DNA of 64,000 nt from Candidatus Forterrea multitransposorum CG_2015-17_Forterrea_25_41 (GCA_009392915.1 CP045477.1:352001-416000); one strand, 5' to 3'; shown: positions 18,783-38,673, counted from the first letter of the stretch. A program made the numbers and translations. Notes: generated by a model not told the origin, from the letters alone.

Positions 18783-19331
18783 TTAGATCTCTTTCTTAAA
18801 ATAAAGCCTAACATTACCGTCTTTCTTACCAATTGAGATAAGCTTATAGTCATTCTTTAAAATATTCTTTTTACTATAAAGATTATCAGGATGTGCACTA
18901 ATAACTGAATATTTATAATTAATACTTTTAAGATAACCCTCTCTTAACTTTATAAGGTAATCTTGAAGCCCATGCCCTCTATATTTCTTTAAGACACCAG
19001 CTCCAGCAAACTCAGCTGTAAGGTCCATATCTTTTTTAGATATCTTACAGTATTTTTTAAAGTTTTCTTTAAATTTGTTATCTTCTTTAAAACAATACAC
19101 AAAAGAATAAGCAATAGGTTTATCTCTATAGTATGTTAAAAAAATAGCAGACTTATAATCAAAATCTTTCTTTAATAATTCATAATCATAAGGAAAGTCA
19201 AATTCTTTAGGTGTTTTTTTAAGTATTTCTAGATGTAATTTTTTAAAAATATAAACTTCACTTTTGTTTATCTTATAGGTTTTAAAAAGTTTATCTTTTA
19301 ATTTTACAGACTCAATATATTTCATAAACAA
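18783..19331 (-). CDS. putative GNAT-family acetyltransferase
   Basis: The motif-A-like segment AGAGVLKKYRGHGLQDYLI is weak. Confidence 0.4.
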   Translation of the reverse strand: MFMKYIESVKLKDKLFKTYKINKSEVYIFKKLHLEILKKTPKEFDFPYDYELLKKDFDYKSAIFLTYYRDKPIAYSFVYCFKEDNKFKENFKKYCKISKKDMDLTAEFAGAGVLKKYRGHGLQDYLIKLREGYLKSINYKYSVISAHPDNLYSKKNILKNDYKLISIGKKDGNVRLYFKKEI

Positions 19332-19688: not shown

Positions 19689-20141
19689 CTATTTTAAGAT
19701 AGCCTTCTTTAATTGCTTCTTTCTTGCAGGAAATAATATTTTATAATAACCAACAGCATCTTCTTCCATAATCTTATTATGTAATAAATATTTGTTTAAA
19801 GAATAGGACTTTAATACATCTAAAAGAACCTTGTCTTTTTTATATTCATCCTTTAAAATATTTTTTTCAATAACTTTTAAGAAAGATGCAGAAGATATTT
19901 CTTTTATAAAAGAAGTTACATCTTTTGTAAATAATTTTTCAATTTCTAAGTTAAAAGTATTAGTATCAACTATTTTTTCAAGAAGTCTATTTATCTGTAA
20001 GTTTGTTGTAACTTCAACAGATACTAAAAATTCTAAAACATCCATTTCCTTTACACCAGGAATTACTTTCATTTTTTTAACAGCTTTGTACTCTTGTGTA
20101 CTTGATATAAAATTAATTATTTCACTCATAATTATAGTCAC
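19689..20141 (-). CDS. hypothetical protein (150 aa), paralog of the adjacent 127-aa gene
   Basis: Shared pattern DVL.[YF]L...LLEK[AI][IV]D....LF....F[LI]KE[LI][NS]S..F.K.I with ORF 20138-20521. Confidence 0.45.
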   Translation of the reverse strand: MTIIMSEIINFISSTQEYKAVKKMKVIPGVKEMDVLEFLVSVEVTTNLQINRLLEKIVDTNTFNLEIEKLFTKDVTSFIKEISSASFLKVIEKNILKDEYKKDKVLLDVLKSYSLNKYLLHNKIMEEDAVGYYKILFPARKKQLKKAILK

Positions 20142-20521
20142 ATTTTATGCATTGATGGAAATATTTCTTTTTTTGAAAAATACTTTTCTAAAAGATAAAC
20201 TTTACAAGAATTATATAAAGCTTTCTTTTGATCTTTTTTATAATCTTCTAAGATTTCATTTATTTTCTTTTTAAATTTTTTTGAATTAAGTTCTTTTAAA
20301 AAATCATCTTCATTTAGAGTAAATAAATCTTGATTTTCTTTTTCTAATTTTTTAACATCTATTGCTTTTTCTAAAAGTAAAGTAACTTCTTTGTTTATTG
20401 GTCCTTGAATAGATAAATAATATTTTAAAACATCTAAATCACTGGTCTTAGATGTTAATACAATTTTTTGATCTTGTTTAAAATCTTTTAAGTTTGAAGT
20501 AAATTGAATGTAGTCTTCCAT
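20138..20521 (-). CDS. hypothetical protein (127 aa), paralog of the adjacent 150-aa gene; 4-bp overlap
   Basis: See the preceding feature. Confidence 0.45.
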   Translation of the reverse strand: MEDYIQFTSNLKDFKQDQKIVLTSKTSDLDVLKYYLSIQGPINKEVTLLLEKAIDVKKLEKENQDLFTLNEDDFLKELNSKKFKKKINEILEDYKKDQKKALYNSCKVYLLEKYFSKKEIFPSMHKM

Positions 20522-20603: not shown

Positions 20604-21185
20604 CTATTTTCTAAAACATTTAGTACATCTTGCTTGGTAACTATCAGTTCCACCTAAAACAACAGTTTCCTTAGATTCTCCTAAACGATATGTTTTAGTT
20701 GCAGTTTCTCCACAATGATTACAAACAGCATCTAAATGTATTAAAAAATCTGAAAGTGCCATTAATGTTCCAATATGTTCTTTTTTATCTTTAAAAGGAA
20801 AAGGTTTTCCTTCAAAGGTCTGGTTTAAACCACATGTAAAAACATTTATTCCTTTTTTTGAAACTTCTAAAATTACATCTATAATATCTGATGTAAAAAA
20901 TTGCACTTCATCTATAAAGATATTAACTAAAGGTATTTCTTTACTTCTTTGAGAAGATAAATATTCTTCTACATTCTTTAAAATTTCTAAAGGAGAATTA
21001 ACAACAATTGCTTCTTCTTTAATACCATTATGGTTAACAATTGATTTTTCATCATATCTATTATCAAGTTTAGGTTTAAAGACAAAAGAATGTCTTTTTG
21101 CAACCTCTTCTCTTGACTTAAGTCTTAGAAGTTCTGTTGTTTTTCCTGAAAACATTGGTCCTGTTATTGTAGTTATTTTTCCCAT
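20604..21185 (-). CDS. tdk: thymidine kinase
   Basis: P-loop GPMFSGKTTELL, FIDEVQFF, and C-terminal zinc ribbon CNHCG...CTKCF. Confidence 0.85.
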   Translation of the reverse strand: MGKITTITGPMFSGKTTELLRLKSREEVAKRHSFVFKPKLDNRYDEKSIVNHNGIKEEAIVVNSPLEILKNVEEYLSSQRSKEIPLVNIFIDEVQFFTSDIIDVILEVSKKGINVFTCGLNQTFEGKPFPFKDKKEHIGTLMALSDFLIHLDAVCNHCGETATKTYRLGESKETVVLGGTDSYQARCTKCFRK

Positions 21186-21206: not shown

Positions 21207-22001
21207 TTAATAAAAACGAGATTTAACCCCTAAAAGTAAATCTGTAAAATAAAGCTCTATTTTACCATCTTTATTTCTTTTGTAAAAAATATTTGAAAAA
21301 TTTTCAAAATCACCTATTCTTTTTTGATTAAAATCTGGTTTCGTAGGAATTTTTTTATGTTCTTGAATTAATTTAATTTTATTATTAATTTCAATAAGTT
21401 CTGTTTTAGTTAATAATTTTTGATTAAAATCTTTTTGTAAATTCTTAAGACCTGTAAAATCATAGACAATAACACTTTCTCTTTTACTTAGGTTTGTAAA
21501 TGCAAAATGTGGCTTTATTGTATTTACACCAAATTTTTGAAAAACTTGATTTGCAAGAAACTCATTGTTTGCAAGATAGTCTTCTTGTGTTACTTTTAGA
21601 AAAAAAGATTTTTTTTCACCCTTATCTTTTAAAAATAAATTTAACTTTAATAATTTTAGATTGTTAAAGCTATTGTTCTCTTTAATTGGTCTTATCTCTA
21701 AACTAAACTTTTTGGTGTTATGTATTGAATGTTTTGAAGTTTGAAAAATTCCTTTTGAAATAAGCTTTACAAGTTCAGGGTATTCTTTAATTAATTTTTT
21801 ACCTAAAACACTAAGATGCATAACTTCTGATTTATTTAATTTAACTGAATAAAACTGAGTTTTAGAGTTTATCTTCAAAACTTTTAATTGTTTTTCGCCT
21901 TGGTTTACAACTCTTCTTTTAACTTTAAAATTAGGATTAATGTTACCAATAGAAACAACTGGTTTTTTATTTGAAAATAATCTTTTAAAAAATCCAACCA
22001 T
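21207..22001 (-). CDS. divergent protein-kinase-like (ELK) fold protein, unknown function; paralog of 35151-36044
   Basis: FFLKV (beta3 Lys-like), IKPHFAF, DFTGLKN, IGDFENFSNIFYKR (catalytic-loop-like) and YFTDLL (DFG-like). Collinear with the second copy. Confidence 0.4.
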   Translation of the reverse strand: MVGFFKRLFSNKKPVVSIGNINPNFKVKRRVVNQGEKQLKVLKINSKTQFYSVKLNKSEVMHLSVLGKKLIKEYPELVKLISKGIFQTSKHSIHNTKKFSLEIRPIKENNSFNNLKLLKLNLFLKDKGEKKSFFLKVTQEDYLANNEFLANQVFQKFGVNTIKPHFAFTNLSKRESVIVYDFTGLKNLQKDFNQKLLTKTELIEINNKIKLIQEHKKIPTKPDFNQKRIGDFENFSNIFYKRNKDGKIELYFTDLLLGVKSRFY

Positions 22002-22026: not shown

Positions 22027-22320
22027 TATAGTGGTTTACTATAAGCCGCTTTATGTATTTAATAGCAATTAATCTAAGCGGAGATTTAAAAAAACTCCTT
22101 GCACCAATTTTTGCTTCCTGCATGATTTCAGCCTCTTTCTTCTCCCCTCAGTTTTACACATCACAGGTTTTTAAAAGGAAAAGAACCGTCTTGTTTCTGT
22201 TCAGGCATGCAAAAGCCCCATTAAGGACTTTATTTTTTTTTTAAAATATTTGGTGAGCGGACCTTCCTCAGATATTTAGAATTACTCTAAATAAATGTGC
22301 TAAACATAAACCACTATATA
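22027..22320. ncRNA. GC-enriched non-coding island bounded by 12-bp perfect inverted repeats (TATAGTGGTTTA / TAAACCACTATA); candidate structured ncRNA or MITE-like element
   Basis: No credible ORF; the 63-aa track ORF is low-complexity. Local GC is clearly above the surrounding sequence. An oligo-T run sits at 22236-22248 on the plus strand. Internal hairpins include CCGCTT/AAGCGG and GGAG/CTCC. Confidence 0.35.
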
Positions 22321-23050: not shown

Positions 23051-23150
23051 AATTAATCAATTAAACATATTTATTTTATATCATATAATTATAGATAGAA
23101 AAGTATAAATAGATATTTAAAATTAGAAAATTAAGTTAAAAGAAGAAAAA

Positions 23151-24092
23151 CTATCTTCTTTTCTTAATAAGAGAAGATCTTGGTTTTTTATCTTCTTTTT
23201 TCAAAACAGTAGTTTTTGGCTTAGGTGTTATATAACGTGCATATTTTAAAAATAAACTATGATTACTTGATTTACTTGGATCAACAACACTTAAAATTCC
23301 AATTTTGTTTTTCTTATTTATGAAGATAATATCAAAATTAAAGTATTTTTTACCTTTTTCATAACCAATACCAACACCAGGCATAAATAAAGATTTATCT
23401 CCCTTAATATTATAAGTTCCTCTAACTTGCCAGTACATATCTTTTAACTTAGTATCTCTAGCACTGAAAAAACCAAGAGCAGCTGTAAATGATTTTTTTT
23501 TGTCAGCAGCAAAATTAACCTCACCTATTCCAGAATAATTAGTTAATTTACCATTATTAAAATTTAAACTTACTGCACCTAATACTTTTTTACTAATTAA
23601 AGCAGCTTGTGCTCTAGAACCTTTTGATGCTTCAACAATATTAAATCCTTCAAGTTTATAATTATTTAATTTTTTATCAAAACCAATTTTTAAATTTATT
23701 TCTTTACCAAAAATTTTTGAAAGATTTGCAGCAAGGTTTACTTGTTCAAATAATTTATCAGTAGTAGGTTTTTTATCAAATAATAATGTATTTGTACCTA
23801 CAGTTAAACCTAAATTATATTTCCCTTCCATAAATTTATTTTTAAAATCAGCACCATATCTGGCTTCAAATGATTGAAATAAAAAATCTTTTTGAGTTAT
23901 GGTTGTACTTAATAAAGCAACACCATTTTTTTCCATAGAAGGTGTTAAACCAGCATAATTAGACAATTGCTGTGCTTTCACAGCAGGTAAAGTTAATGAA
24001 CCTATAACAATAGGTAACCCTGCAACTAATATCTTTGAATCTTTTAAAACTGCAGAAACAAAATCTTTAAAATCATTAAATTTATAAGTCAT
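23151..24092 (-). CDS. hypothetical secreted protein with alternating-hydrophobicity (beta-strand-like) segments and a basic C-terminal tail
   Basis: N-terminal hydrophobic segment ILVAGLPIVIGSLTLPAVKA. Stretches of alternating hydrophobic residues. Ends ...LIKKRR. Confidence 0.45.
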   Translation of the reverse strand: MTYKFNDFKDFVSAVLKDSKILVAGLPIVIGSLTLPAVKAQQLSNYAGLTPSMEKNGVALLSTTITQKDFLFQSFEARYGADFKNKFMEGKYNLGLTVGTNTLLFDKKPTTDKLFEQVNLAANLSKIFGKEINLKIGFDKKLNNYKLEGFNIVEASKGSRAQAALISKKVLGAVSLNFNNGKLTNYSGIGEVNFAADKKKSFTAALGFFSARDTKLKDMYWQVRGTYNIKGDKSLFMPGVGIGYEKGKKYFNFDIIFINKKNKIGILSVVDPSKSSNHSLFLKYARYITPKPKTTVLKKEDKKPRSSLIKKRR

Positions 24093-24200
24093 AATTAATT
24101 TTCCTTTTTTATAAATATTTTAAACAACAATTAATTTATAAAGATATTCTTTTACTTATTAATTATAATAGATTAAAAGAAATTAAAAAGAAGAACAAAA

Positions 24201-24776
24201 ATGATAAAGAAGTATGATAATTTAGCTTTATTAATACACCCAATGTATTCAATAGTTACTGACATATATAGAAATACAACAGGTATGGGTAAAATCACTT
24301 TTAAAGAAATGGAAAGTGAATATGTAAAGAGATTAAATGTCTATAAAGAAAGTATTTCTTCTTTTAAAAACACAAATACTCTTTTTGTACTTGTTGAACC
24401 TACAAAAGATTTAATGAATTTTAAATTAGAATTTTTCTATAAGCATATGATGGAAGATTTATATGTTTTTGCAAAAAAAGAACTTGGTCTTTCTTTTAGA
24501 AAAATAACAGATCTTAATTATCTTTCAGATATTAAAAAAATAACACCTACTCTTAAAAAAAATATTGGAGTTTTTTCTTTTGGAGAGCATAGAGAAGTTT
24601 GTGTTAAAACATTTAATGAATATACAATTAATTTTTTAAAAGAAAATAATTTTAAACCTATTTCTAAAGGAATACAAATAAAATTTTCATTTGATATTGA
24701 AAATAAAAGATTAAGACAAGTTCAAAAAGAAAAGCCTAAACCAAAGCCAAAAAAAATAATAAAAAAAAGAAGATAA
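24201..24776 (+). CDS. hypothetical protein with Lys/Pro-rich C-terminal tail
   Basis: ORF track. Ends KEKPKPKPKKIIKKRR. Transcribed divergently from 23151-24092. Confidence 0.45.
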   Translation: MIKKYDNLALLIHPMYSIVTDIYRNTTGMGKITFKEMESEYVKRLNVYKESISSFKNTNTLFVLVEPTKDLMNFKLEFFYKHMMEDLYVFAKKELGLSFRKITDLNYLSDIKKITPTLKKNIGVFSFGEHREVCVKTFNEYTINFLKENNFKPISKGIQIKFSFDIENKRLRQVQKEKPKPKPKKIIKKRR

Positions 24777-24781
24777 GAAAT

Positions 24782-24937
24782 TTAAGCCATTAATATTTCT
24801 GTATGACCAAAACATCCACAAGAGTCAGAACCGCAATCTCCTGCTTGTAAAATATCTGTATGTGTGAAACATCCACAAGAGTCTGAACCGCAATCTCCTG
24901 CTTGTAAAGTATTTAAATTAAAATTTTCTGTATTCAT
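24782..24937 (-). CDS. 51-aa Cys-rich peptide with a perfect tandem duplication of a 20-aa unit (LQAGDCGSDSCGCF[TG]HT[DE]IL)
   Basis: Hand translation gives MNTENFNLNTLQAGDCGSDSCGCFTHTDILQAGDCGSDSCGCFGHTEILMA. The SD-like AAGAGGT lies 8 nt upstream with a TATA-like box further upstream. Not in the ORF track because it is under 60 aa. Confidence 0.45.
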   Translation of the reverse strand: MNTENFNLNTLQAGDCGSDSCGCFTHTDILQAGDCGSDSCGCFGHTEILMA

Positions 24938-25025: not shown

Positions 25026-25098
25026 TGGACTCTGCGAGATTCGAACTCGCGGCCTCGTCCTTGCAAGGGACGCGCTCTACCAGCTGAGCTAAGAGCCC
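25026..25098 (-). tRNA. tRNA-Ala (TGC)
   Basis: Hand-folded. G3:U70 identity pair. Anticodon loop CTTGCAA. T-arm CGAGTTCGAATCTCG. No encoded CCA. Confidence 0.9.
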
Positions 25099-25300: not shown

Positions 25301-25364
25301 GTTAGGTAAGTTTTTAAAACTTTTAAAATAACAACTAACATTTAGTCATTATATAAAATAGGAG

Positions 25365-26854
25365 GTGATCCGTCCGCAGGTTCCCCTACGGACACCTTGT
25401 TACAACTTAGTCTACCTCGCGAAATATAGAATAACTTTATCCTTTAGTAGAGTAAAGTTCATCAACACTCCACTCGGTTGGCTTGATGGGCGGTGTGTGC
25501 AAGGCGCAGGGACATATTCACCGCGTGATAGTGACACGCGATTACTGGGGATTCCAGCTTCATGAGGGTGAGTTGCAACCCTCAATCCGGACTTAGACTA
25601 AGTTTTTGAGATTGCCACCCCTTTTCAGGTTAGATACTCTTTGTCTTAGCCATTGTATGCCGCGTGTTGCCCAGAACATTCACGCTATACAGACCTACCT
25701 TCGCCCACTCCTTCCTCATTGTTACCAATGCAGTCCTATTAGAGTGCCTTCTTTTGCAAGCAAAAAAAGTAGCAACTAATAGCATGGGTCTCGCCCGTTA
25801 CCTGAGTTAACAGGAAGCTTCACAGTACGAGCTGACGATGGCCATACAGCAGTTCTCAGCGCATCAGGTAACCCCTTCAGAGTGACCATCATATTGCTGT
25901 CAGCCCTGGTAAAATATCTGGCGTTTCATCCAATTAAACCGCAGCATCCACCCCTTGTAGTGCACCCCCGCCAATTCCATTAAGTTTCAGTCTTGCGACC
26001 ATACTTCCCAGGCGGTGAATTTAATGGTTTCCCTTCGGCCCTGAGCTAACTCGTAGTTAACCCAACACCTAATTCACATCGTTTACGGCTGGGACTAACC
26101 GGGTATCTAATCCGGGTTGCGCCCCCAGCTTTCGTATCTCACTGTCGAATCCGTACTCGTTAAGCGCCTTCGCCACAGGTGGTCTTTTTAGTATCTTAAG
26201 ATTCTACTCCTACTCTAAAAATACCCTTAACGTCTTCCGGTTCCTAGTCATGCCAGTATCTTTTGCAATTCAACTAGTTAGGCTAGCTGCTTTCACAAAA
26301 GACTTAACAAACCAGCTACACACGCTTTAAGCCAAATAATGCTGGATACCACTTGGGGATTACGTATTACCGCGGCGGCTGGCACGCATATTGCCCTCCC
26401 CTTATTCACATAGTTATTCACACTATATAAAAGCTTACATAGTAAGCACTTGGAATCTCTTTATCACGATTTCTCGCATTGTAAAAGTTTCGTAACTGCT
26501 GCACCCCGTAGGGCTAGGGACATTATCTCAGTTCCCTTCTCCGGGCTACCTCTCTCAAGGCCCGTACAGATCTTCGGCTTGGTAGGCAGTTACCCTACCA
26601 ACAACCTAATCTGGCGCAGTCCCATCCTTTCGCGCCAAAGAAGCATGATTCTTTGACCTTTAAAATAGTAATCATTCCAGATTTACTTTTTTATAGAGCA
26701 TTATACTCAGTTTCCCGAGTTTAACTCTTCAAAAGGGTAGGTTGACCACGTGTTACTGAGCCGTTCGCCAAAACCTCTCATAGCTGAGGCTTTAAGACTT
26801 GCATGTCTTAGTCAGATTCCAATAGCAGTATCCACCAGCAGGATCAGCTGGAAT
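25365..26854 (-). rRNA. 16S rRNA (archaeal)
   Basis: 5' ATTCCAGCTGATCCTGCTGG... and 3' ...GTAACAAGGTGTCCGTAGGGGAACCTGCGGACGGATCACCTCCT read on the minus strand. Universal segments (GTGCCAGCCGCCGCGGTAA etc.) present. About 1490 nt. Confidence 0.9.
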
Positions 26855-27818: not shown

Positions 27819-27892
27819 TGCTCTCGCCGGGATTCGAACCCGAGTCTCTGGCTTGAAAGGCCAGAATGATTACCGGACTACACCACAAGAGC
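27819..27892 (-). tRNA. tRNA-Glu (TTC)
   Basis: Hand-folded. Acceptor GCTCTTG/CGAGAGC. Anticodon stem-loop CTGGC-CTTTCAA-GCCAG. T-arm TCGGGTTCGAATCCCGG. Confidence 0.9.
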
Positions 27893-28264: not shown

Positions 28265-29062
28265 TTATTTTCTTTTAATTGGTCTAAAAATTTTTTTAGA
28301 CTCTCTACTTTTTATAAAAACATTTTTTTTAGAATCAAGAAGTCTTTTCTTCTTGATCTCAAAATTTTTTTCTATTTTTTTCTTAATATCATTTTCAATT
28401 ATATTTTCTAAAGAAATATTTTCTAACTTCAAGCCACCTTTAAGACCAGCCTGTATATATTGTCTTAATTGTCTATAATATTGAGAATTATCTTTATTTG
28501 TTTTAAAAGGAAGTTCTAAAAGAATATTTATTTTATTTTTATCAGCATATTTTTTAAATAAAGAAACAACTTTAACTCTCCAATTTTCATTAAGTTCTTT
28601 ATTTAATTTATCTAAATAAATTCTATTTTTTTCTAATAATTCAAGTTTATTATTATTTTTATTACTACCAATATATCCTTGAATATTACTTATTCTTAAA
28701 GTTATTTTATTATTCTTATTAATAGTAAAATAAATACCAAAAGTTGAAATTACATTCTTATTATAAGAAATTTGATATTCAATAATTGATTCAGGATGTA
28801 AATTTTCAAAAGGATTTACACGACTAACTTTAAATTTGTCATTTTTACCTAATTGTAAATTTTTTAAATTATTTTTTTCTAAAAATTGTAAATTTAATTT
28901 AAATGAATTTAAAATTTCTTCTTTAGAATGATTAGTATGCATAAGATCTATTAAATCAGATAATAAATGAACTTCTTTTGCATTTAAAGAACGTCCAACA
29001 TTATTTACAACATACTTTTTAATATCTAATTCATGCATCATAATAAATCTCTTTAAAACCAT
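28265..29062 (-). CDS. hypothetical protein (overlaps the fen start by 10 nt)
   Basis: ORF track; no motif recognised. Confidence 0.4.
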   Translation of the reverse strand: MVLKRFIMMHELDIKKYVVNNVGRSLNAKEVHLLSDLIDLMHTNHSKEEILNSFKLNLQFLEKNNLKNLQLGKNDKFKVSRVNPFENLHPESIIEYQISYNKNVISTFGIYFTINKNNKITLRISNIQGYIGSNKNNNKLELLEKNRIYLDKLNKELNENWRVKVVSLFKKYADKNKINILLELPFKTNKDNSQYYRQLRQYIQAGLKGGLKLENISLENIIENDIKKKIEKNFEIKKKRLLDSKKNVFIKSRESKKIFRPIKRK

Positions 29063-30096
29063 TTATCAATAGTTTTTTGTTTATTTGAATTAGTTCTAGC
29101 TGTAATAAATTTATCTAAACTATTTACAACTCTTTCTTGAGAAAAATTAAACCTATCTATTAATATATTTTCAATTTTATTACGATCAAACTCAGATTTA
29201 CTTATTTCTGGATTTTTTGAAATTAATGGATTTAAAAATATATTTTCAATTTCTTTATAATCAAAATTAACTACTTTATTTTTTTCTTTTAAAACTTTTT
29301 CAATACTTTCAAAACTATTATTTTCTAATACTAGTTTTAAAGCAGTTTTTGGGCCAATACCTTCAACTTTATCATTAAAATCAGTTCCAATAAGCATTGA
29401 AAGATAAATTAATTTTTCTCTTGAAATATTTAATTTTTCTAAAGTTTCTTTAAGATATATTATTTCAGGATTAATATCAACATAAACATTCTTTGAAGGA
29501 ATTTTTTTCTTTCTTGAAACAGTTAAATTTCTAACAAGATTTGGAGAACCAAATAATAAACAATCAAAATCTTGAGAAACAGTAAAATCTAATATATTTT
29601 CTTTTGTCATGTAAGAAATTTGAGCTTCAGCTTCAGAAGGAGCATTAATTATAGAGATACCCATTGCTTTTAATAGATCTTTTGATTCTTCTATTATCTT
29701 TTCATCAATTGAAGTTATTCTTTTTGAAAACTTATTCATATCTTCAAGATCTCCTCTTAAAACAGCATCTTTAAAATGTTCTTTAGCTATTTCTTTTCTA
29801 GATTTTCTTTCATCTTGTGTTTTTTGCTTTAAATCTATACTTTTTCCATCATATACAAAAAAAACATCAATGTCATTAGATAAAAGGTTAAGCATTCTAT
29901 AAAAAAGACCATTTAAATGGCTAGTAATATCACCATTTTCGTTCTTTAAAGGTTCTCCATCTACACCTCTAATTGTAGTTAAGAACTGATATAGAATATT
30001 ATAAGCATCAAAACCAAATTTTTTATGTTTATGTGTATGATTAAACTCAAATTTCTGTTTTGATTCTTCTATTAGTTTTCCAATTGCAACTCCCAT
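29053..30096 (-). CDS. fen: flap endonuclease 1 (FEN-1)
   Basis: MGVAIGKLI N-terminus, XPG-N/XPG-I pattern and H3TH region (GIGPKTALKLV). Confidence 0.8.
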   Translation of the reverse strand: MGVAIGKLIEESKQKFEFNHTHKHKKFGFDAYNILYQFLTTIRGVDGEPLKNENGDITSHLNGLFYRMLNLLSNDIDVFFVYDGKSIDLKQKTQDERKSRKEIAKEHFKDAVLRGDLEDMNKFSKRITSIDEKIIEESKDLLKAMGISIINAPSEAEAQISYMTKENILDFTVSQDFDCLLFGSPNLVRNLTVSRKKKIPSKNVYVDINPEIIYLKETLEKLNISREKLIYLSMLIGTDFNDKVEGIGPKTALKLVLENNSFESIEKVLKEKNKVVNFDYKEIENIFLNPLISKNPEISKSEFDRNKIENILIDRFNFSQERVVNSLDKFITARTNSNKQKTIDKWF

Positions 30097-32504: not shown

Positions 32505-33377
32505 TTATTTAAATTTATAAGCTATAATTTTATATACTAATTTTGCTAAAAAATAACTCTCAGAAGAAAAATTCCAATTAGCCCCTTTTGGTGAAAATTC
32601 AACAATGTCAGCACCAATAATTTCTTTTTCTTTAAAAATTAAATTTAAAATTTTCATTGTTTGATTCCAATTAAATCCACCTGGTTCAGGAGTATTTGTA
32701 TTTTTAATAATTGAAGGATCAAAAAAATCAACATCAATAGATAAGAATATTTTTTTTGGTAATTTTTTTAATTGTTTTTTAAAATTATTTAAAGATTTAT
32801 GTAAATTATCTGCATATATTACAGAAACATTTTTTCCATCTTTTGTTTTTAAAAAATCATATTCATAAAAATCTTGAGATCTAACCCCTGCAATTAATGT
32901 TTTATGATTTTTAGAAATATATCTTGAAACACAAGCATGATGCCAAGTATCTTTTCCCCATTCTTCTCTTAAGTCAGAGTGAGCATCAAGAACTATTATT
33001 CCAAAATCTTTTTCAATTTTTTCAAAAGCAGAAACTACAGGAAAAGTTGTTGAATGATCAGAACCTAAAATTATTGGGAATTTAAAAGAAGAAATATTTT
33101 TATAAACAGCATTTGAAATTTCTTTTGAAACTTTAAAAAAATCTTCTTTATTTTTTAAAAAATTAATTTCTTTAAAAGTATAAATTCCATTAAGATAAGG
33201 TTCTGTTTTTAAATCACAATCAAAATATTCAAGTTCATAAGAAGATTTAATAATTTCTTTTGGTCCCTTATAAGCACCCTCTCCAACAGTTACTTTACCA
33301 TTATAAAGTAAAGGTAAAATACATATTGAAGATTTATCTTTATTTGAATATTCTTTTAAAAGATTTAAAAATTGCAT
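32505..33377 (-). CDS. agmatinase/arginase-family ureohydrolase
   Basis: Mn-binding motifs LDAHSDL and SIDVDFFDP, plus GGxS-like TFPV region. Confidence 0.75.
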   Translation of the reverse strand: MQFLNLLKEYSNKDKSSICILPLLYNGKVTVGEGAYKGPKEIIKSSYELEYFDCDLKTEPYLNGIYTFKEINFLKNKEDFFKVSKEISNAVYKNISSFKFPIILGSDHSTTFPVVSAFEKIEKDFGIIVLDAHSDLREEWGKDTWHHACVSRYISKNHKTLIAGVRSQDFYEYDFLKTKDGKNVSVIYADNLHKSLNNFKKQLKKLPKKIFLSIDVDFFDPSIIKNTNTPEPGGFNWNQTMKILNLIFKEKEIIGADIVEFSPKGANWNFSSESYFLAKLVYKIIAYKFK

Positions 33378-33380
33378 ACA

Positions 33381-35027
33381 TTATCTTTTTTTAACATATT
33401 TTTTATTTTTTACAATTTTTTTTTGTTTCTTAATATCTTTCTTTACTTTTTCTCTAAACTTTGTATCATCTTTTTTTCCATCATTAAAAGAGGATCTAGG
33501 ACCATCTCTCTTTCTATCACCATCAAAGGAAGATCTTGGTTTATGTTTGTCAAAAGAAGGTCTAGGACCATCTCTTTTTCTATCTCCATCAGTATGTGGT
33601 CTAGGTTTATGTTTATCAAAAGAAGGTCTAGGACCATCTCTTTTTCTATCACCATCAAAGGAAGGTCTAGGACCATCTCTTTTTCTATCATCATGGAATC
33701 TATTTTTAGATCTTTGATTTTCAAAAGAGCTTTCAGAAACTGCTCTTTTTCTATCTCTAAAACTTGTTTCATTTCTTGTTGTTCTTGGATTTTGAGAACC
33801 TCTTGATTTTCTTAAAAAACCTACTTGTTTATTAAAAAAATCTTTTGCTCTAATATCTGATTTATTATTTGTATTTTTTTCAACATCTCTAGTCCTATCA
33901 AAAGAAACAACTTTAACTTCTGGAACATCAATTTTTTTAATTGAAAAACCAAATCTTTTACACATTTTTATAAATGTAGGTTCATCTCTATAATCAATAA
34001 AAGTTATTGCTTTTCCTTCTTGACCAGCTCTTGCAGTTCTTCCTATCCTATGAACATACTGAGTATCATCTTTTGGAAGATCATAATTATAAATATATTC
34101 AAGATTATCAATATGTATACCTCTTGCAGAAACATCACTTGATATTAAAACTGCAGTTTTATGAGTATGATATTTATCTATAGTGTGTGTTCTTTTTCTT
34201 TGTTCAAGTCCACCATGAAGTTTAAATGCTTCAACTCCATTTTTAATTAAATTATTATAAATTACATCAACTTCTCTTCTAGTATTTGAAAATACAATTG
34301 ATTTTTTAGGATTTTCTTTAATTAAATGTAAAAGAAGAGAAAATTTTTGATTTGATTTAACAACATAATATTCTTGTAAAAGTTTTGAAGGATCAACTTT
34401 TGATTCAACAGAAACTCTTTCTGCATTTGGAATATATTTTCTTTCAATATTTGAAACATCTTTTGTAATTGTTGCAGAAAACATTAAAGTTTGTCTATGT
34501 CGTGGAATTTTATCAATAATTTTTGAAATATCTTCTGCAAAACCCATATCACACATTCTGTCAGCTTCATCTAATATTAAAAATTTAACTCCCTTTAGAT
34601 TTAAATTACCTCTATTCATTTGATCGATTATTCTTCCTGGAGTTCCAATTACTATGTCTGAAAATCTAATATCTTTTGCTTGTTGAGAAACAGATTCTCC
34701 TCCGTAAACAGCACATGAAATTAATTTTTTAACTTCAGACATTTTTTTAACTTCTTTAAAAACTTGCAAAGCAAGTTCTCTTGTTGGAACAATAATTAAA
34801 GCTTGAACTTTCTTTTCTTTATTAACATTTGGTAAAATACCTGAAAGAAAAGCTACTGTTTTTCCTGTTCCTGTTGCAGATTCTGCAATTATATTTTTAC
34901 CTTCTAAGATTAAAGGTATTGTTTTAATTTGTATTTCAGTAGGTTTTAAAATACCCATATTTGTTACTGCTTGTAATATAGTTTTATCTTTAATTAAACT
35001 ATTAAAATTTTCATTAGAATTAGTCAT
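33381..35027 (-). CDS. DEAD-box ATP-dependent RNA helicase with C-terminal R/D/G-rich tandem repeats
   Basis: Q-motif, AESATGTGKT (motif I), DEAD, SAT and HRIGRTAR present. The C-terminus carries 5 copies of DGDRKRDGPRPSFDKHKPR. Confidence 0.85.
   Translation of the reverse strand: MTNSNENFNSLIKDKTILQAVTNMGILKPTEIQIKTIPLILEGKNIIAESATGTGKTVAFLSGILPNVNKEKKVQALIIVPTRELALQVFKEVKKMSEVKKLISCAVYGGESVSQQAKDIRFSDIVIGTPGRIIDQMNRGNLNLKGVKFLILDEADRMCDMGFAEDISKIIDKIPRHRQTLMFSATITKDVSNIERKYIPNAERVSVESKVDPSKLLQEYYVVKSNQKFSLLLHLIKENPKKSIVFSNTRREVDVIYNNLIKNGVEAFKLHGGLEQRKRTHTIDKYHTHKTAVLISSDVSARGIHIDNLEYIYNYDLPKDDTQYVHRIGRTARAGQEGKAITFIDYRDEPTFIKMCKRFGFSIKKIDVPEVKVVSFDRTRDVEKNTNNKSDIRAKDFFNKQVGFLRKSRGSQNPRTTRNETSFRDRKRAVSESSFENQRSKNRFHDDRKRDGPRPSFDGDRKRDGPRPSFDKHKPRPHTDGDRKRDGPRPSFDKHKPRSSFDGDRKRDGPRSSFNDGKKDDTKFREKVKKDIKKQKKIVKNKKYVKKR
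33470..33695 (-). repeat. intragenic tandem repeats (about 57-nt unit) encoding the helicase RDGPRPSFD tail
   Basis: Repeated ggaccatctctttttctatcaccatcaaaggaagg units. They create spurious overlapping ORFs on both strands (33372-33806 and 33443-33772). Confidence 0.7.
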
Positions 35028-35150: not shown

Positions 35151-36044
35151 TTATTTAACAATACCTTTATTTTTTGCAAAATCAAGTATTTCTTTAGGAT
35201 TTTTTAAATTTACATCTAAATATTCACTATTTAACATTTTAAAATCTGCAGAAAAAACATCTATTAAATATAATTTAATTTCTCCATTTGAAAGTCTTTT
35301 ATAAAAACAATTTTTTGGAGTAATATCTAAAATTTGAATAGAATCTTTTAACATAAAATTTGCAGTAACATCCATTAAATTATTTTTGATTTGTAAAAAT
35401 TCTTTTTCAGAAATTAATTTCTCTAAATATCCTTGTGTTACATTTTTAAGAGAAGTAAAATCATATGCAATAAAATGAATTCCTTTTTTAAGATGTGTTT
35501 TAGAAAAAGCAAATCTTGGCTTGATTATAGAAATTCCATTTTGTTCAAGATATTTTAAAAGAATCATTTCTTGAGCAGCATTTTTATAACTATAATTATC
35601 AAGAGCTACTTTAATATATAATGATTTATTTCTACCATTTTTATTTATGGTTAATTTATAAGAAGTAACAGTATTTCTTGACAAATAACTTAAAGATAAT
35701 TTTAAGGGTTCAACCTTAAATCTTCTCTTAGGATCAATATAGGAATATTCTTTTTCACTATTAATAATATTTTGTCTAAATTTTAAAGAGGATTTATTAA
35801 TTTTTCCTTCACCACCAAAAGATTTAAATAAATCATATATAACTTCAATGGAACTTGGAATATAATCTTTATAACCTTTTTTTCCTATACCTCTAGTGTA
35901 ATTTACTAAAGACTTAATTTTAGGATCATAAACAATCAAACTTGATGGAGAATCTTTAGATTTATATTTAGAAGTTTCAATATGTTTTAAAGGAGGTTTT
36001 GAAATTTTGGATGTGTTTTTTTTTAATCTAAAAGGTTTTATCAT
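35151..36044 (-). CDS. divergent protein-kinase-like (ELK) fold protein; paralog of 21207-22001
   Basis: YIKV (beta3 Lys-like), IKPRFAF, DFTSLKN, ILDITPKNCFYKR (HRDxKPxN-like) and YLIDVF (DFG-like). Confidence 0.4.
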   Translation of the reverse strand: MIKPFRLKKNTSKISKPPLKHIETSKYKSKDSPSSLIVYDPKIKSLVNYTRGIGKKGYKDYIPSSIEVIYDLFKSFGGEGKINKSSLKFRQNIINSEKEYSYIDPKRRFKVEPLKLSLSYLSRNTVTSYKLTINKNGRNKSLYIKVALDNYSYKNAAQEMILLKYLEQNGISIIKPRFAFSKTHLKKGIHFIAYDFTSLKNVTQGYLEKLISEKEFLQIKNNLMDVTANFMLKDSIQILDITPKNCFYKRLSNGEIKLYLIDVFSADFKMLNSEYLDVNLKNPKEILDFAKNKGIVK

Positions 36045-36050
36045 AATTAT

Positions 36051-37097
36051 TCAGTCTATTATTTCTATTTTTGGTCTTTCTAAATTAAAAAGATCAGTAT
36101 AGTAAATATAAGCTCCTGCATTTAAGAAAATAACTTTATCTCCTATCTTTGGAACATATCCTTCCTTAAAATATACTCTATATCTAAAAATATCTTCTGA
36201 AGCTGGAGTTAAACCTTTAATTGTATAAGGTTTAAGAGTATTAGTTTCACTTTCTCCATCAACTAAAAGTTTAATATGAGTAACTAAAGTATCCATTGAA
36301 CAATTAAATAAAGATGCATCAATAAAAATAGTATCATCAACAATATTTTTTATAGTTGTAATTAACTTTCCTGAAGGTGCAGCAATACTTCTTCCAGGTT
36401 CAGTTAAAAGTTTAATATTTAAACTATTTAAAAATATTTTAAGTTCTTTTAATTTATCATAAATAACCTCTATTGTTTTAGGATTAATGTTTTTATATAA
36501 AACAGGAAGCCCTCCTCCAATATCTAAAAAATCAATTTTTTCTAAAGTTTCTTTTATAAGAGAAGATGAAATCTCTTCAATTAAAGACCATTCAGATAAA
36601 TTTTGTGTTTTTCTATGGAAATGAACACCTAACTTTTCAATTAAAGGATTATCTTTTAATGAAATAATTAAATCATTAATTTCTTTTGAATAAAAACCAT
36701 AAACAAAAAACTTACCAGTAACAACAGTATATTCTTTAAGTCTCATTCTTAAAAGTAAAGTTATCTTATAATTATTTTTTTTAATTTCTTCTAAAAGAAA
36801 ATTTAAATCATTTTTATTATCAACAATAAATTTATCAATTCCTTCTTTAAAAATTACACTAATCTCTTCTTTATCAGGAGAATGAAGCATATACCATATT
36901 TTTTTTTTATCTTTTATTTTTTCAATCTCATTATTATGATGTATTAAAAAATTAGAAGAGGTGTTTTCTTCTAAAACTGAAGTAATATAAGGATTAGACT
37001 TAACACTATAACAAACAATATCAGATAACTTTTCTACTTTTTTATATTCTTTTAATATTTTTTCTTTTGAAAAAACAAATTTTGCATTTGATTTCAT
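36051..37097 (-). CDS. PLP-dependent fold-type III decarboxylase (ornithine/diaminopimelate/carboxyspermidine decarboxylase family)
   Basis: The PLP-Lys motif CYSVKSNP and the DIGGGLPV glycine loop are visible. Specificity cannot be assigned from sequence alone. Confidence 0.6.
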   Translation of the reverse strand: MKSNAKFVFSKEKILKEYKKVEKLSDIVCYSVKSNPYITSVLEENTSSNFLIHHNNEIEKIKDKKKIWYMLHSPDKEEISVIFKEGIDKFIVDNKNDLNFLLEEIKKNNYKITLLLRMRLKEYTVVTGKFFVYGFYSKEINDLIISLKDNPLIEKLGVHFHRKTQNLSEWSLIEEISSSLIKETLEKIDFLDIGGGLPVLYKNINPKTIEVIYDKLKELKIFLNSLNIKLLTEPGRSIAAPSGKLITTIKNIVDDTIFIDASLFNCSMDTLVTHIKLLVDGESETNTLKPYTIKGLTPASEDIFRYRVYFKEGYVPKIGDKVIFLNAGAYIYYTDLFNLERPKIEIID

Positions 37098-37104
37098 TTA
37101 AACA

Positions 37105-37734
37105 TCACACTTTTAAAACATAAGATGGAAGCTCTAGTTTTAGAGAGATTTCTTTTCCTTCTTTTGTAAAACACTTTAATTGATTTCTTTCAAAATCATA
37201 TGAAACAACTTTCTTTACATTATTTTTTGAAAGTATTTCTCTGTATTTATTAATTCTATTAAGATTTGCAGGAGTTTTTTCTAACTTAAAACCACCTATA
37301 TATTTTGAAAAACCTTTAAACTCTTCAAAAAACCAAGTTTCTAATTTTATTTTTTTAAATTTATTTATTTTAGAAAATTTAATTAAAAAGTCAGCATATT
37401 TTTTTATATCATATAAATTTCTTAAAGAGTTTTTATTATCATTTTTAAAAATTGTTTTTGAAAAATGTATACCATCTCTTTCAATATAAGATAGGAAAGA
37501 TACATATTTTGATTCTCCAACAATTGTTGTTCTTTTTTTATCAGTTAAGAAAGTAACTATTTTATCTTTATTAATAGCTTCATTTAATTCTTTTAAAGAA
37601 GGCTTTTCTGGAAAATATTCATACTTAACATCTTTATATCTTTCATTTAGTTTCTCATAAACACTTTTTTCTCTTTTGAAAGGATTTATTTTTTTTATAC
37701 TGGACCTAACTTTTGAAATACTTTTTTTAATCAT
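37105..37734 (-). CDS. hypothetical protein
   Basis: ORF track; no motif recognised. Confidence 0.4.
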   Translation of the reverse strand: MIKKSISKVRSSIKKINPFKREKSVYEKLNERYKDVKYEYFPEKPSLKELNEAINKDKIVTFLTDKKRTTIVGESKYVSFLSYIERDGIHFSKTIFKNDNKNSLRNLYDIKKYADFLIKFSKINKFKKIKLETWFFEEFKGFSKYIGGFKLEKTPANLNRINKYREILSKNNVKKVVSYDFERNQLKCFTKEGKEISLKLELPSYVLKV

Positions 37735-37737
37735 ACT

Positions 37738-38673
37738 TTAAAGCACTCCTTCTTTTTTTAAAGTATCAAGAGCAGAAACCATAGCTATTGGAAAAGTAAT
37801 TGTAACATCTCCAATAACAGTCACTGCATCAGAATTATCTTTAATCTTACCCCAAGATTTAGCTTCATCAGTTGTTGCACCAGAAAGACTTCCTGAACGA
37901 GGAGAGGCAGTTGTCATATAAAGAGCATAATCTGCTCCACCATTAATTAAAGTTGTAAGAATAATATGATGTTTTGAAACTCCACCACCAAGAGCAACAA
38001 TTCCTTTTTTTTCATCATGTGATGTTGAAAAAATAATATTTCTAAAATCATTAATAATATCAACATTAAAATCTTTATGTTCTTCTTTAAACAAATATAA
38101 ATGAAAACCAAAAGAGCCATCTGTTATTGCAGGACAAAAGACAGGAACATTGTTTATTGCTGCTTGATAAAGTATTGATGAAGGATCATTTAACTTAAGA
38201 CCAATCTCTCTTAAAAGTTCAGAGATTGTTAAAGATTTTTTTTCTTTATAAACTTCTAAAAGTAAATTTTTAATTTTTGCTTCAAGTTTTTGGTATTGAT
38301 CATTTGTAATTAAAATATTACCAACTCTATTTTCTCCTCTTTCATATAATTCTTCATCATTTGAAGAAAATGAACCTAAAATAAACTTATCTCCATCAGC
38401 TTTCATAATATCTTCTTCAATTGAACCTACAGTTGTAACTATAACATCACACATTTTCTTTTCAATTAACTGTGCAAAGAAACCTCTTAAACCAGAAGTT
38501 ACCATGTTAGAAGTAAATGAAAAATAAACTTTTGCACCTTCTTTTTTCATTTTAACTAAAAGATCAGATGCTCTTTTAAGTTCATAACTTTGAAAACCTA
38601 TCTTTCCATAACCTTCTAATAATTCTGAAACTGTTAAATTTTCTTTCCATAAAAAATCTTTTGTATAATCCAT
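37738..38673 (-). CDS. dys: deoxyhypusine synthase
   Basis: GGGVSKHH motif and overall collinearity with DHS (NAD-binding, spermidine-binding regions). Confidence 0.85.
   Translation of the reverse strand: MDYTKDFLWKENLTVSELLEGYGKIGFQSYELKRASDLLVKMKKEGAKVYFSFTSNMVTSGLRGFFAQLIEKKMCDVIVTTVGSIEEDIMKADGDKFILGSFSSNDEELYERGENRVGNILITNDQYQKLEAKIKNLLLEVYKEKKSLTISELLREIGLKLNDPSSILYQAAINNVPVFCPAITDGSFGFHLYLFKEEHKDFNVDIINDFRNIIFSTSHDEKKGIVALGGGVSKHHIILTTLINGGADYALYMTTASPRSGSLSGATTDEAKSWGKIKDNSDAVTVIGDVTITFPIAMVSALDTLKKEGVL

Follow-up and report, generated by a model that had tools for sequence, protein, structure and literature searches.

Few enzyme scaffolds have been studied as thoroughly as the protein-kinase-like fold. 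The αF helix and the rest of the C-lobe are regarded as its anchor, and helix αF holds the catalytic machinery in place in all well-studied kinases. RIO and Bud32, which are universal single-copy housekeeping genes, retain αF-type C-lobe helices, WaaP retains C-lobe helices past its metal-binding aspartate, and the effectors HopBF1 and OspG still have helices after the aspartate of the Asp-Phe-Gly (DFG) motif. To our knowledge, the minimal kinases Bud32, RIO, OspG and HopBF1 all keep helices past that residue. The genomes of DPANN archaea are tiny, and dependence on other cells is presumed for most of them. Here we analyse a 64,000-nucleotide (nt) stretch of Candidatus Forterrea multitransposorum CG_2015-17_Forterrea_25_41 (GCA_009392915.1 CP045477.1:352001-416000; G+C about 24%), hereafter the window, and compare two of its genes with these systems. 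Copy 1 (21207..22001, minus strand) encodes 264 amino acids (aa) and copy 2 (35151..36044, minus strand) encodes 297 aa, each from an ATG start. Judging from sequence and predicted structure, both genes probably encode active Mg-ATP phosphotransferases that use standard kinase chemistry and belong to one small, undescribed kinase-like family. A preliminary description of the window had proposed the two as kinase-fold paralogs; the loss of everything after the DFG-like aspartate, the occurrence of this small family in few named lineages and the hypervariability of copy 1 between strains are points that it did not contain.

A paralogous pair with a kinase-like fold

The proteins are paralogs, as had been proposed. 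BLASTP aligned 133 aa of their C-terminal halves with 32% identity and 55% positives (E = 1e-15), and in a six-frame tblastn search of the window each copy was the other's sole significant match (E = 2.6e-13 and 2.8e-13), the next-best matches having E values of at least 0.27. Every motif listed in the preliminary description is present in both proteins and the order is collinear (copy 1/copy 2): FFLKV/LYIKV, IKPHFAF/IKPRFAF, YDFTGLKN/YDFTSLKN, DFENFSN/DITPKN and FTDL/LIDV. The copy 1 protein is identical to an NCBI entry, 'hypothetical protein GW835_01945 [archaeon]'.

AlphaFold models built without a template gave a bilobal fold in which the N-lobe sheet has five strands, with its elements in the order β1–3, αC, β4–5, hinge, αD, αE, catalytic loop and β7–8. 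The model of copy 2 is the more confident of the two, with a predicted local distance difference test (pLDDT) of 84.8 and a predicted template modelling score (pTM) of 0.85, compared with 76.4 and 0.72 for copy 1. Foldseek searches returned kinases only (E 1.8e-4 to 3e-3). The structural neighbours of copy 2 were WaaP (9.0), RIO1 (8.2), APH (8.0), Bud32 (7.6), HopBF1 (7.4) and OspG (6.9), with ROP18 and FIKK13 also among the Foldseek matches listed.

The kinase-like core of copy 1 spans residues 96–258 (21228..21716, minus strand) in its model and contains this complete series of elements, with YDF at the hinge and TDL as the DFG-like motif. Within it, K136 (21594..21596, codon AAA) lies on strand 129–138 as the candidate β3, VAIK-type lysine, and E147 (21561..21563, codon GAG) lies on helix 141–156 as the candidate αC glutamate; their pairing is proposed from the position of these elements in the model. 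The catalytic loop D231–N237 (DFENFSN; 21291..21311, codons checked) is followed by D254 (YFTDL; 21240..21242, codon GAT), the DFG-equivalent aspartate, right after strand 248–252. All four features are on the minus strand, as are their counterparts in copy 2, which together span 35259..35612 (codons checked). In the copy 2 model, K145 (35610-35612) is on β3, E159 (35568-35570) on αC, D240 (35325-35327) and N245 (35310-35312) in the catalytic loop and D262 (35259-35261) after β8; K145, E159, N245 and D262 are nearly invariant in an alignment of family members (A3).

Conservation of these residues was counted over 89 aligned rows, with the rows that have a residue at the column as denominator. 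The lysine is kept in 80/81 rows, the αC glutamate in 74/81, the catalytic aspartate in 61/74, the loop asparagine in 68/73 and the DFG-like aspartate in 58/58 (82–100%). Distant members carry near-canonical strings of eukaryotic protein kinase (ePK) subdomains VIb and VII, for example 'DIRPENIFID...KLYIF', and in a profile search of the PDB a 68-member profile aligned with the GCN2 kinase domain in register through the lysine, the glutamate, the hinge and HRD..N. The predicted fold, the Lys/Glu pair, the catalytic-loop Asp and Asn and the Asp after β8 are together those of the protein-kinase-like superfamily (Pfam clan CL0016). The earlier proposal of a minimal Kdo-kinase-, RIO- or Bud32-like fold thus agrees with the kinase-only structural matches and with the conserved catalytic residues; neither a non-kinase predicted fold nor loss of the lysine and aspartate across aligned orthologues was seen.

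Given this arrangement, catalysis would follow the standard route. The β3 lysine (K136/K145), held by the αC glutamate (E147/E159), would position the ATP phosphates, the catalytic-loop aspartate (D231/D240) would act on the acceptor hydroxyl, and the loop asparagine (N237/N245) together with the DFG-like aspartate (D254/D262) would bind metal. Substrate choice would lie with the variable β1–β2 loop, the αD–αE surface and an N-terminal module, and the two paralogs, each at a conserved position in the genome, probably have different targets.

Truncation after the DFG-like aspartate

In all 58 members in which the DFG-like aspartate is aligned, only 3–36 aa follow it (median 12.5), and the activation segment (DFG...APE) and helices αF–αI are absent. 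This aspartate is followed by 10 residues in copy 1 and by 35, which include one short helix, in copy 2. The truncation does not reflect a split gene with its C-lobe encoded downstream, a possibility that we ruled out because the genes downstream of the two copies, for thymidine kinase (tdk) and a DEAD-box helicase, respectively, are complete. If Bud32, RIO, OspG and HopBF1 all keep helices past the DFG aspartate, the family would be more truncated in this part than any of these minimal kinases.

At the other end of the chain, the β3 lysine stands at median position 134, which leaves about 100 residues for an N-terminal module ahead of the N-lobe. In copy 1 the module comprises residues 1–95 (21717..22001, minus strand), modelled as four β-strands followed by two short helices. 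A motif around K72 and P75 is found family-wide, both residues being nearly invariant in the profile alignment of copy 1, its orthologues and copy 2 (A1), and the corresponding segment of the family profile consensus is 'aKkiikenPgl'. The model divides copy 2 (minus strand) into a module of residues ~1–105, a core of ~106–266 and the 35-aa tail, and its high pTM suggests confident packing of the module against the core. We infer from the models that the module may compensate for the absent C-lobe, taking over part of its stabilising or substrate-binding role. As there is no activation loop, we propose that the enzymes are either constitutively competent or activated by a partner. A family that has all five catalytic residues under purifying selection and ends just past the DFG-like aspartate would test how minimal a fold catalysis needs, and whether the C-lobe can be replaced by a module at the opposite end of the protein.

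Comparison with known kinase families

Copy 1 had no Pfam or NCBIfam match, and the only curated models touched by copy 2 were those of YrbL, a PhoP-regulated kinase-like protein, with which it aligned from αC to the DFG-like aspartate. Both scores were below cut-off (PF10707, E = 2.3e-4, 21.3 bits against 31.5; NF007671, E = 6.9e-4, 19.4 bits against 227). YrbL resembles the family in being small and in having an unassigned substrate, and hhalign placed the two in register at the catalytic loop and the DFG position. It differs in having S/T-L-K-P-x-N without a catalytic aspartate at that site and in continuing for about 57 residues after the aligned region; in addition, the YrbL homologues that we found are enterobacterial, whereas the kinase-like family is archaeal. 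The profile comparison used an alignment of 23 YrbL sequences, drawn from homologues collected with E. coli YrbL (A4). Membership of YrbL was rejected on the sub-cut-off scores, the absence of any match for copy 1 and the E value of 0.4 from that profile–profile comparison (A3 against A4).

When 68 members were scanned individually against Pfam, the kinase-clan entries among the 25 families listed were Kdo/WaaP (PF06293; 3 of the 68 members, best E 0.007, gathering threshold not reached) and YrbL (1 member); RIO1 and Bud32 models were absent from these 25 families, which are listed as those matching most members, and no sequence-model match to RIO, Bud32 or APH was found. Neither window copy matched the ePK model PF00069, for which a paralog in locus L007 gave E = 0.036 and 13.9 bits (cut-off 31.7), and the family has neither the ePK Gly-rich loop nor the activation segment and C-lobe helices nor a score at the gathering threshold. 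A search of both proteins against PDB sequences with phmmer yielded nothing meaningful. The verdict of the preliminary description, that the pair is too divergent to assign, therefore stands at the level of named families: no Pfam or NCBIfam kinase model scored above its cut-off and the YrbL profile comparison was not significant. Sub-threshold matches to models of the kinase clan nevertheless recur among these proteins, and we file the family in the protein-kinase-like superfamily, outside YrbL, Kdo/WaaP, RIO, Bud32, APH and Pkinase.

Architecture and distribution separate the family further from its structural neighbours. Unlike WaaP/Kdo (PF06293; structure 6dfl), it ends 3–36 aa past the metal-binding aspartate and has the module of ~100 aa at the N terminus instead. 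Unlike RIO and Bud32, it comprises 79 representatives only, evolves fast and is present several times in a genome. HopBF1 and OspG (6pwd, 4q5h), which are minimal effector kinases of bacteria, are structural neighbours without sequence similarity to the family; they are secreted by type III systems, whereas neither a signal nor a system for export is apparent here. The Toxoplasma ROP and Plasmodium FIKK kinases are likewise lineage-specific, expanded and fast-evolving kinase folds of host-dependent organisms, but they are full-length eukaryotic kinases with export signals, and the analogy is one of evolutionary pattern only, with nothing to indicate closer kinship than membership of one superfamily.

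Family size and distribution

An exhaustive search of 1.84 billion representative proteins with the A1 profile recovered 79 proteins at E ≤ 1e-3, nearly all of 230–310 aa, from which we conclude that the family is small. In a word-indexed database, copy 1 had ten relatives. The same search with copy 2 returned no match, even to itself; since the exact copy 2 sequence is present on public contigs, this blank is an index miss rather than an absence. Four loci come from species-representative genomes and are named Candidatus Iainarchaeum (or 'ainarchaeum') or uncultured archaeon, which places the family in Iainarchaeum-type DPANN archaea; these are the named genomes that carry it.

The family divides into copy-1-like and copy-2-like groups and is present in several copies per genome, with a tandem pair in L016 and a further paralog in L007 between the helicase and agmatinase genes. 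In the distant genome L006, the kinase-like gene (32% identical; L006:5980-6737) is interrupted, with a 209-aa open reading frame (ORF) and then the last 41 residues in another frame; this reflects either decay to a pseudogene or a mistake in the assembly. Several distant members lie on contigs of 1–2 kb, which show little of their surroundings. The literature on DPANN or Iainarchaeota kinases and on hypervariability in DPANN contained no description of the family that we could find. It is likely, on our assessment, that this is an undescribed, small family within the protein-kinase-like superfamily. The family is new in a superfamily that is very well known, and its truncation and population-genetic signature are unusual.

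Evidence bearing on catalytic activity

Several observations weigh against the proposal that both proteins are active phosphotransferases with separate roles. The alignments behind the models are shallow, with 12 sequences for copy 1 and 44 for copy 2, and Foldseek TM-scores to solved kinases are low (0.30–0.37). Matches to sequence models of characterised kinase families all fall short of significance: the best kinase match in the PDB profile search, GCN2, had E = 0.13, and the hhalign comparison with the 23-sequence YrbL alignment, at E = 0.4, was not significant. The catalytic aspartate is replaced in 13 of 74 rows (about 18%), partly, it may be, through misalignment. A GxGxxG Gly-rich loop occurs in no member, many having a single Gly followed by Asn or His; several atypical kinases likewise lack this loop. 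The αF helix is missing, and without it activity may depend on a partner, or the function of the proteins may be limited to nucleotide binding. As regards function, copy 2 shows no strain-level hypervariability (96–100% identity, like its flanks, and 97% aa identity in a related strain), and the synteny reported below, being that of compact, co-directional genes within one lineage, is weak evidence of shared function.

Some of these features would be expected if the proteins were pseudokinases or nucleotide-binding scaffolds, acting as ATP-dependent binders, adaptors or regulators of their neighbours, for example of the decarboxylase beside copy 2. The missing Gly-rich loop, activation segment and αF–αI helices and the 13 substituted catalytic aspartates fit such a role, as do the fast evolution of the genes relative to every neighbour and the translational coupling of copy 2 to the decarboxylase (a 4-nt overlap in L007). 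Pseudokinases, however, typically lose at least one of the five catalytic residues. Here the five occur together in both copies and in most members, the lysine in all but one of 81 rows and the DFG-like aspartate in every row, and the core of copy 1 is under purifying selection. We regard a purely non-catalytic role as quite unlikely, and retain active phosphotransferases as the preferred explanation for both genes.

Strain-level variability of copy 1

We compared the window with strains L001 and L003, whose 16S ribosomal RNA (rRNA) genes are 100% identical to that of the window. Over 17 kb of collinear DNA the sequences are 93–100% identical, save for one stretch of ~800 bp at 79–83%. Copy 1 departs from this background: its identity falls to 61–77% at the nucleotide level precisely from 21207 to about 21950 and recovers at both gene ends. 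By the Nei–Gojobori method, synonymous divergence (dS) in copy 1 is 0.72 and nonsynonymous divergence (dN) 0.30, compared with dS of 0.03–0.13 and dN of 0.011–0.017 in four flanking genes. This excess over the flanks indicates that the copy 1 allele is old and was brought in by recombination, and did not arise by local fast mutation. The P0002 allele is itself a mosaic, 100% identical to the P0004 type over residues 21–60 and 89–95% identical to the window allele over residues 131–264.

The divergence between alleles is concentrated in two segments of the copy 1 protein. Segment 1 (residues 91–130; 21612..21731, minus strand) covers β1, the loop at the position of the Gly-rich loop and β2, and has 23–35% aa identity between most allele pairs; segment 2 (residues 186–230; 21312..21446, minus strand) covers αD, αE and the loop before the catalytic aspartate, and has 29–47%. 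Ratios of dN to dS are 1.2–1.3 in segment 1 and 0.9–1.2 in segment 2, figures that are noisy because the segments are short (40–45 codons) and dS is saturated. Ratios are 0.11–0.24 for core residues 131–185, which indicates that the protein is functional, and 0.20–0.25 for residues 21–90. Metagenome contigs that carry the gene often end beside it, as expected at a strain-heterogeneous spot.

A diversity-generating retroelement was considered as the source of this variability and rejected on pattern, without a formal search: the divergence is gene-wide, synonymous and nonsynonymous sites have diverged alike, and one allele combines two others as a clean mosaic. This pattern points to recombination rather than to adenine-targeted mutagenesis of a short variable repeat.

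The deep, recombining alleles of copy 1 point to variation in its target, which might be a virus, a host or a competitor, and so suggest a tie to biological conflict or to interaction with a partner. More specifically, copy 1 could be a conflict protein, that is, an effector, toxin or antiviral sensor kinase directed at a variable viral or host/partner-cell protein, with its alleles kept by balancing or frequency-dependent selection and shuffled by recombination; this would refine the proposal of an active kinase and does not exclude it. The allele replacement is sharp-edged in a near-clonal background, dS exceeds that of the flanks 5–20 times, the P0002 allele is an intragenic mosaic, and the two surface segments have dN/dS near or above 1 around a constrained core. 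The contig breaks beside the gene, the tandem duplicate in one genome, the third paralog in another and the presence of the minimal bacterial effector kinases HopBF1 and OspG among the structural neighbours are consistent with the same idea. The noise in the segment ratios, however, tells against it, and such polymorphism is absent from copy 2. The flanks of copy 1 are housekeeping genes (tdk and the RNase P RNA gene) and form neither a defence island nor a mobile element, and inspection by eye, with no prediction tool run, revealed no N-terminal signal sequence or transmembrane segment. Searches of both copies and five neighbouring genes against PADLOC-DB 2.0 gave no family at E ≤ 1, and membership of a defence system was rejected on this absence of matches. 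On balance, a conflict role for copy 1 is possible but doubtful.

A wider reading joins these strands: an undescribed kinase-fold architecture, with the post-DFG C-lobe deleted and an N-terminal module substituting for it, would form a fast-evolving enzyme set of host-dependent DPANN archaea, and copy 1 would be a conflict or host-interaction kinase with ancient recombining alleles in populations that are nearly clonal. We consider this combination unlikely; if true, the copy 1 locus would give archaea an equivalent of the polymorphic effector kinases known from bacterial pathogens and from parasites among the eukaryotes. Genes that are duplicated, fixed in position and diversified faster than their surroundings are good candidates for mediating dependence on other cells or resisting viruses, and the copy 1 locus would serve as a concrete, trackable marker of strain-level balancing selection.

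Gene neighbourhood of copy 2

The fold-type III pyridoxal 5'-phosphate (PLP) decarboxylase gene (PF02784, E = 8.6e-12; 36051..37097, minus strand) lies 6 nt upstream of copy 2 and is a tightly coupled, conserved neighbour. Its best NCBIfam match is lysA, far under cut-off. The decarboxylase adjoins copy-2-type genes in three further genomes: the two genes overlap by 4 nt in L007, are 2 nt apart in L008 and are likewise adjacent in L019. An agmatinase-family ureohydrolase gene (TIGR01230, E = 7.3e-44; 32505..33377, minus strand) lies downstream; in L008 and L019 it comes immediately after the kinase-like gene, and in the window the DEAD-box helicase gene (33381-35027, minus strand) stands between them. 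Upstream, the same conserved string includes deoxyhypusine synthase (37738..38673, minus strand; PF01916 on an identical public contig), which is 76–87% identical in L007, L008 and L019. The proximity of copy 2 to polyamine genes noted in the preliminary description is thus confirmed, and extends to other genomes.

The order decarboxylase, kinase-like gene, agmatinase persists where the kinase-like gene itself is only 30% identical. In every comparison, at the positions of both paralogs, the kinase-like gene is the most diverged of its neighbourhood. In L019, for example, identities are 76% for deoxyhypusine synthase, 64% for the decarboxylase, 64% for the agmatinase and 30% for the kinase-like gene. 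We propose that copy 2 is co-transcribed with the decarboxylase and agmatinase genes, next to deoxyhypusine synthase, and from these gene neighbours it most likely acts in or on an agmatine, polyamine or aIF5A-modification module. The fixed link to the three genes suggests an extra regulatory or enzymatic step in archaeal polyamine and aIF5A modification.

This setting also leaves room for the kinase fold to serve a different reaction, for example AMPylation, which SelO carries out, glutamylation, which SidJ carries out, or a ligation of ATP-grasp type with a polyamine or an agmatine-like compound as substrate. An amine-modifying ligase would be sensible within a decarboxylase/agmatinase/deoxyhypusine-synthase string that recurs in four genomes, and the absence of a Gly-rich loop and a C-lobe leaves the orientation of the nucleotide open. 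The sequence strings, however, are of the ordinary phosphotransferase type, D-x4-N and then an Asp after β8; the fold matches listed are kinase-fold proteins with no ATP-grasp enzymes among them, and nothing specific to SelO or SidJ was found. A non-phosphotransferase reaction thus seems very improbable, and phosphotransfer remains the chemistry that we favour for both copies.

Gene neighbourhood of copy 1

The tdk gene (NCBIfam NF003296, E = 5e-53; 20604..21185, minus strand) begins 21 nt downstream of copy 1, which accords with the earlier placement of copy 1 in a tdk-containing operon, and is a conserved neighbour, following copy-1-type genes in L001, L003, L004, L005, L011 and L014. The kinase-like gene is still followed by tdk in L014, where its own identity is down to 28% and tdk is 67% identical over the portion on the contig.

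Just upstream of copy 1 lies an archaeal RNase P RNA gene (22030-22315, minus strand), found by a local search that matched the full RF00373 model (1–288; 46.7 bits, E = 3.3e-12). The default scan misses it because this score is below the Rfam gathering score of 84. The gene stops 29 nt short of the start codon of copy 1, and its identity between strains is 96–100%.

Two small paralogous genes lie downstream of tdk, at 19689-20141 (150 aa) and 20138-20521 (127 aa), both on the minus strand; their ends share 4 nt, their products are 33–37% identical, and the pair is kept with tdk in L001, L003, L004 and L005, with no significant family match for either.

Further observations

A second strain-variable cassette lies 2 kb from copy 1, at window 18783-19331 (minus strand), and corresponds to L001:10563-11537 and L011:2994-3968. 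In the window it encodes a 182-aa protein that is GNAT-like by eye and has a weak acyltransferase match (E = 0.042), and near-identical strains have an M20 peptidase at this site. In the distant locus L006, the gene immediately after the kinase-like one encodes a homologue of this 182-aa protein.

On the other side of copy 1, a 1.7-kb segment of the window (23124-24798) carries orf313 (23151-24092, minus strand) and orf191 (24201-24776, plus strand), neither of which has a Pfam match; L001 has ~130 bp instead. The archaeal 16S rRNA gene is at 25360-26854 (minus strand), and the RNA genes nearest to it are single tRNAs at 25026-25098 and 27819-27892. Since there is no 23S or 5S match within the 64-kb window, the rRNA genes appear to be unlinked. 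The ~800-bp stretch of reduced identity in the strain comparison with L001 corresponds to window 28294-29093 (79–83%, compared with 91–100% elsewhere) and lies within a 279-aa gene with no Pfam match downstream of an XPG/FEN-like gene.

In the neighbourhood of copy 2, the most strain-variable part is the C-terminal tail of the DEAD-box helicase (33443-33850, minus strand), which is tandemly repeated and charged, with a DGDRKRDGPRPSFDKHKPR-type unit, and has 64–79% nt identity compared with 96–100% around it. Between deoxyhypusine synthase and the decarboxylase, window 37105-37734 (minus strand) encodes a 209-aa protein with no family match. Its counterpart in L019 occupies the same slot and is 40% identical. 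In L007 and L008 the gene is missing or others stand in its place, L008 having a 264-aa unknown protein and an AbiEii-domain gene in that slot. Between close strains the 209-aa gene has 86–92% nt identity and diverges faster than its flanks.

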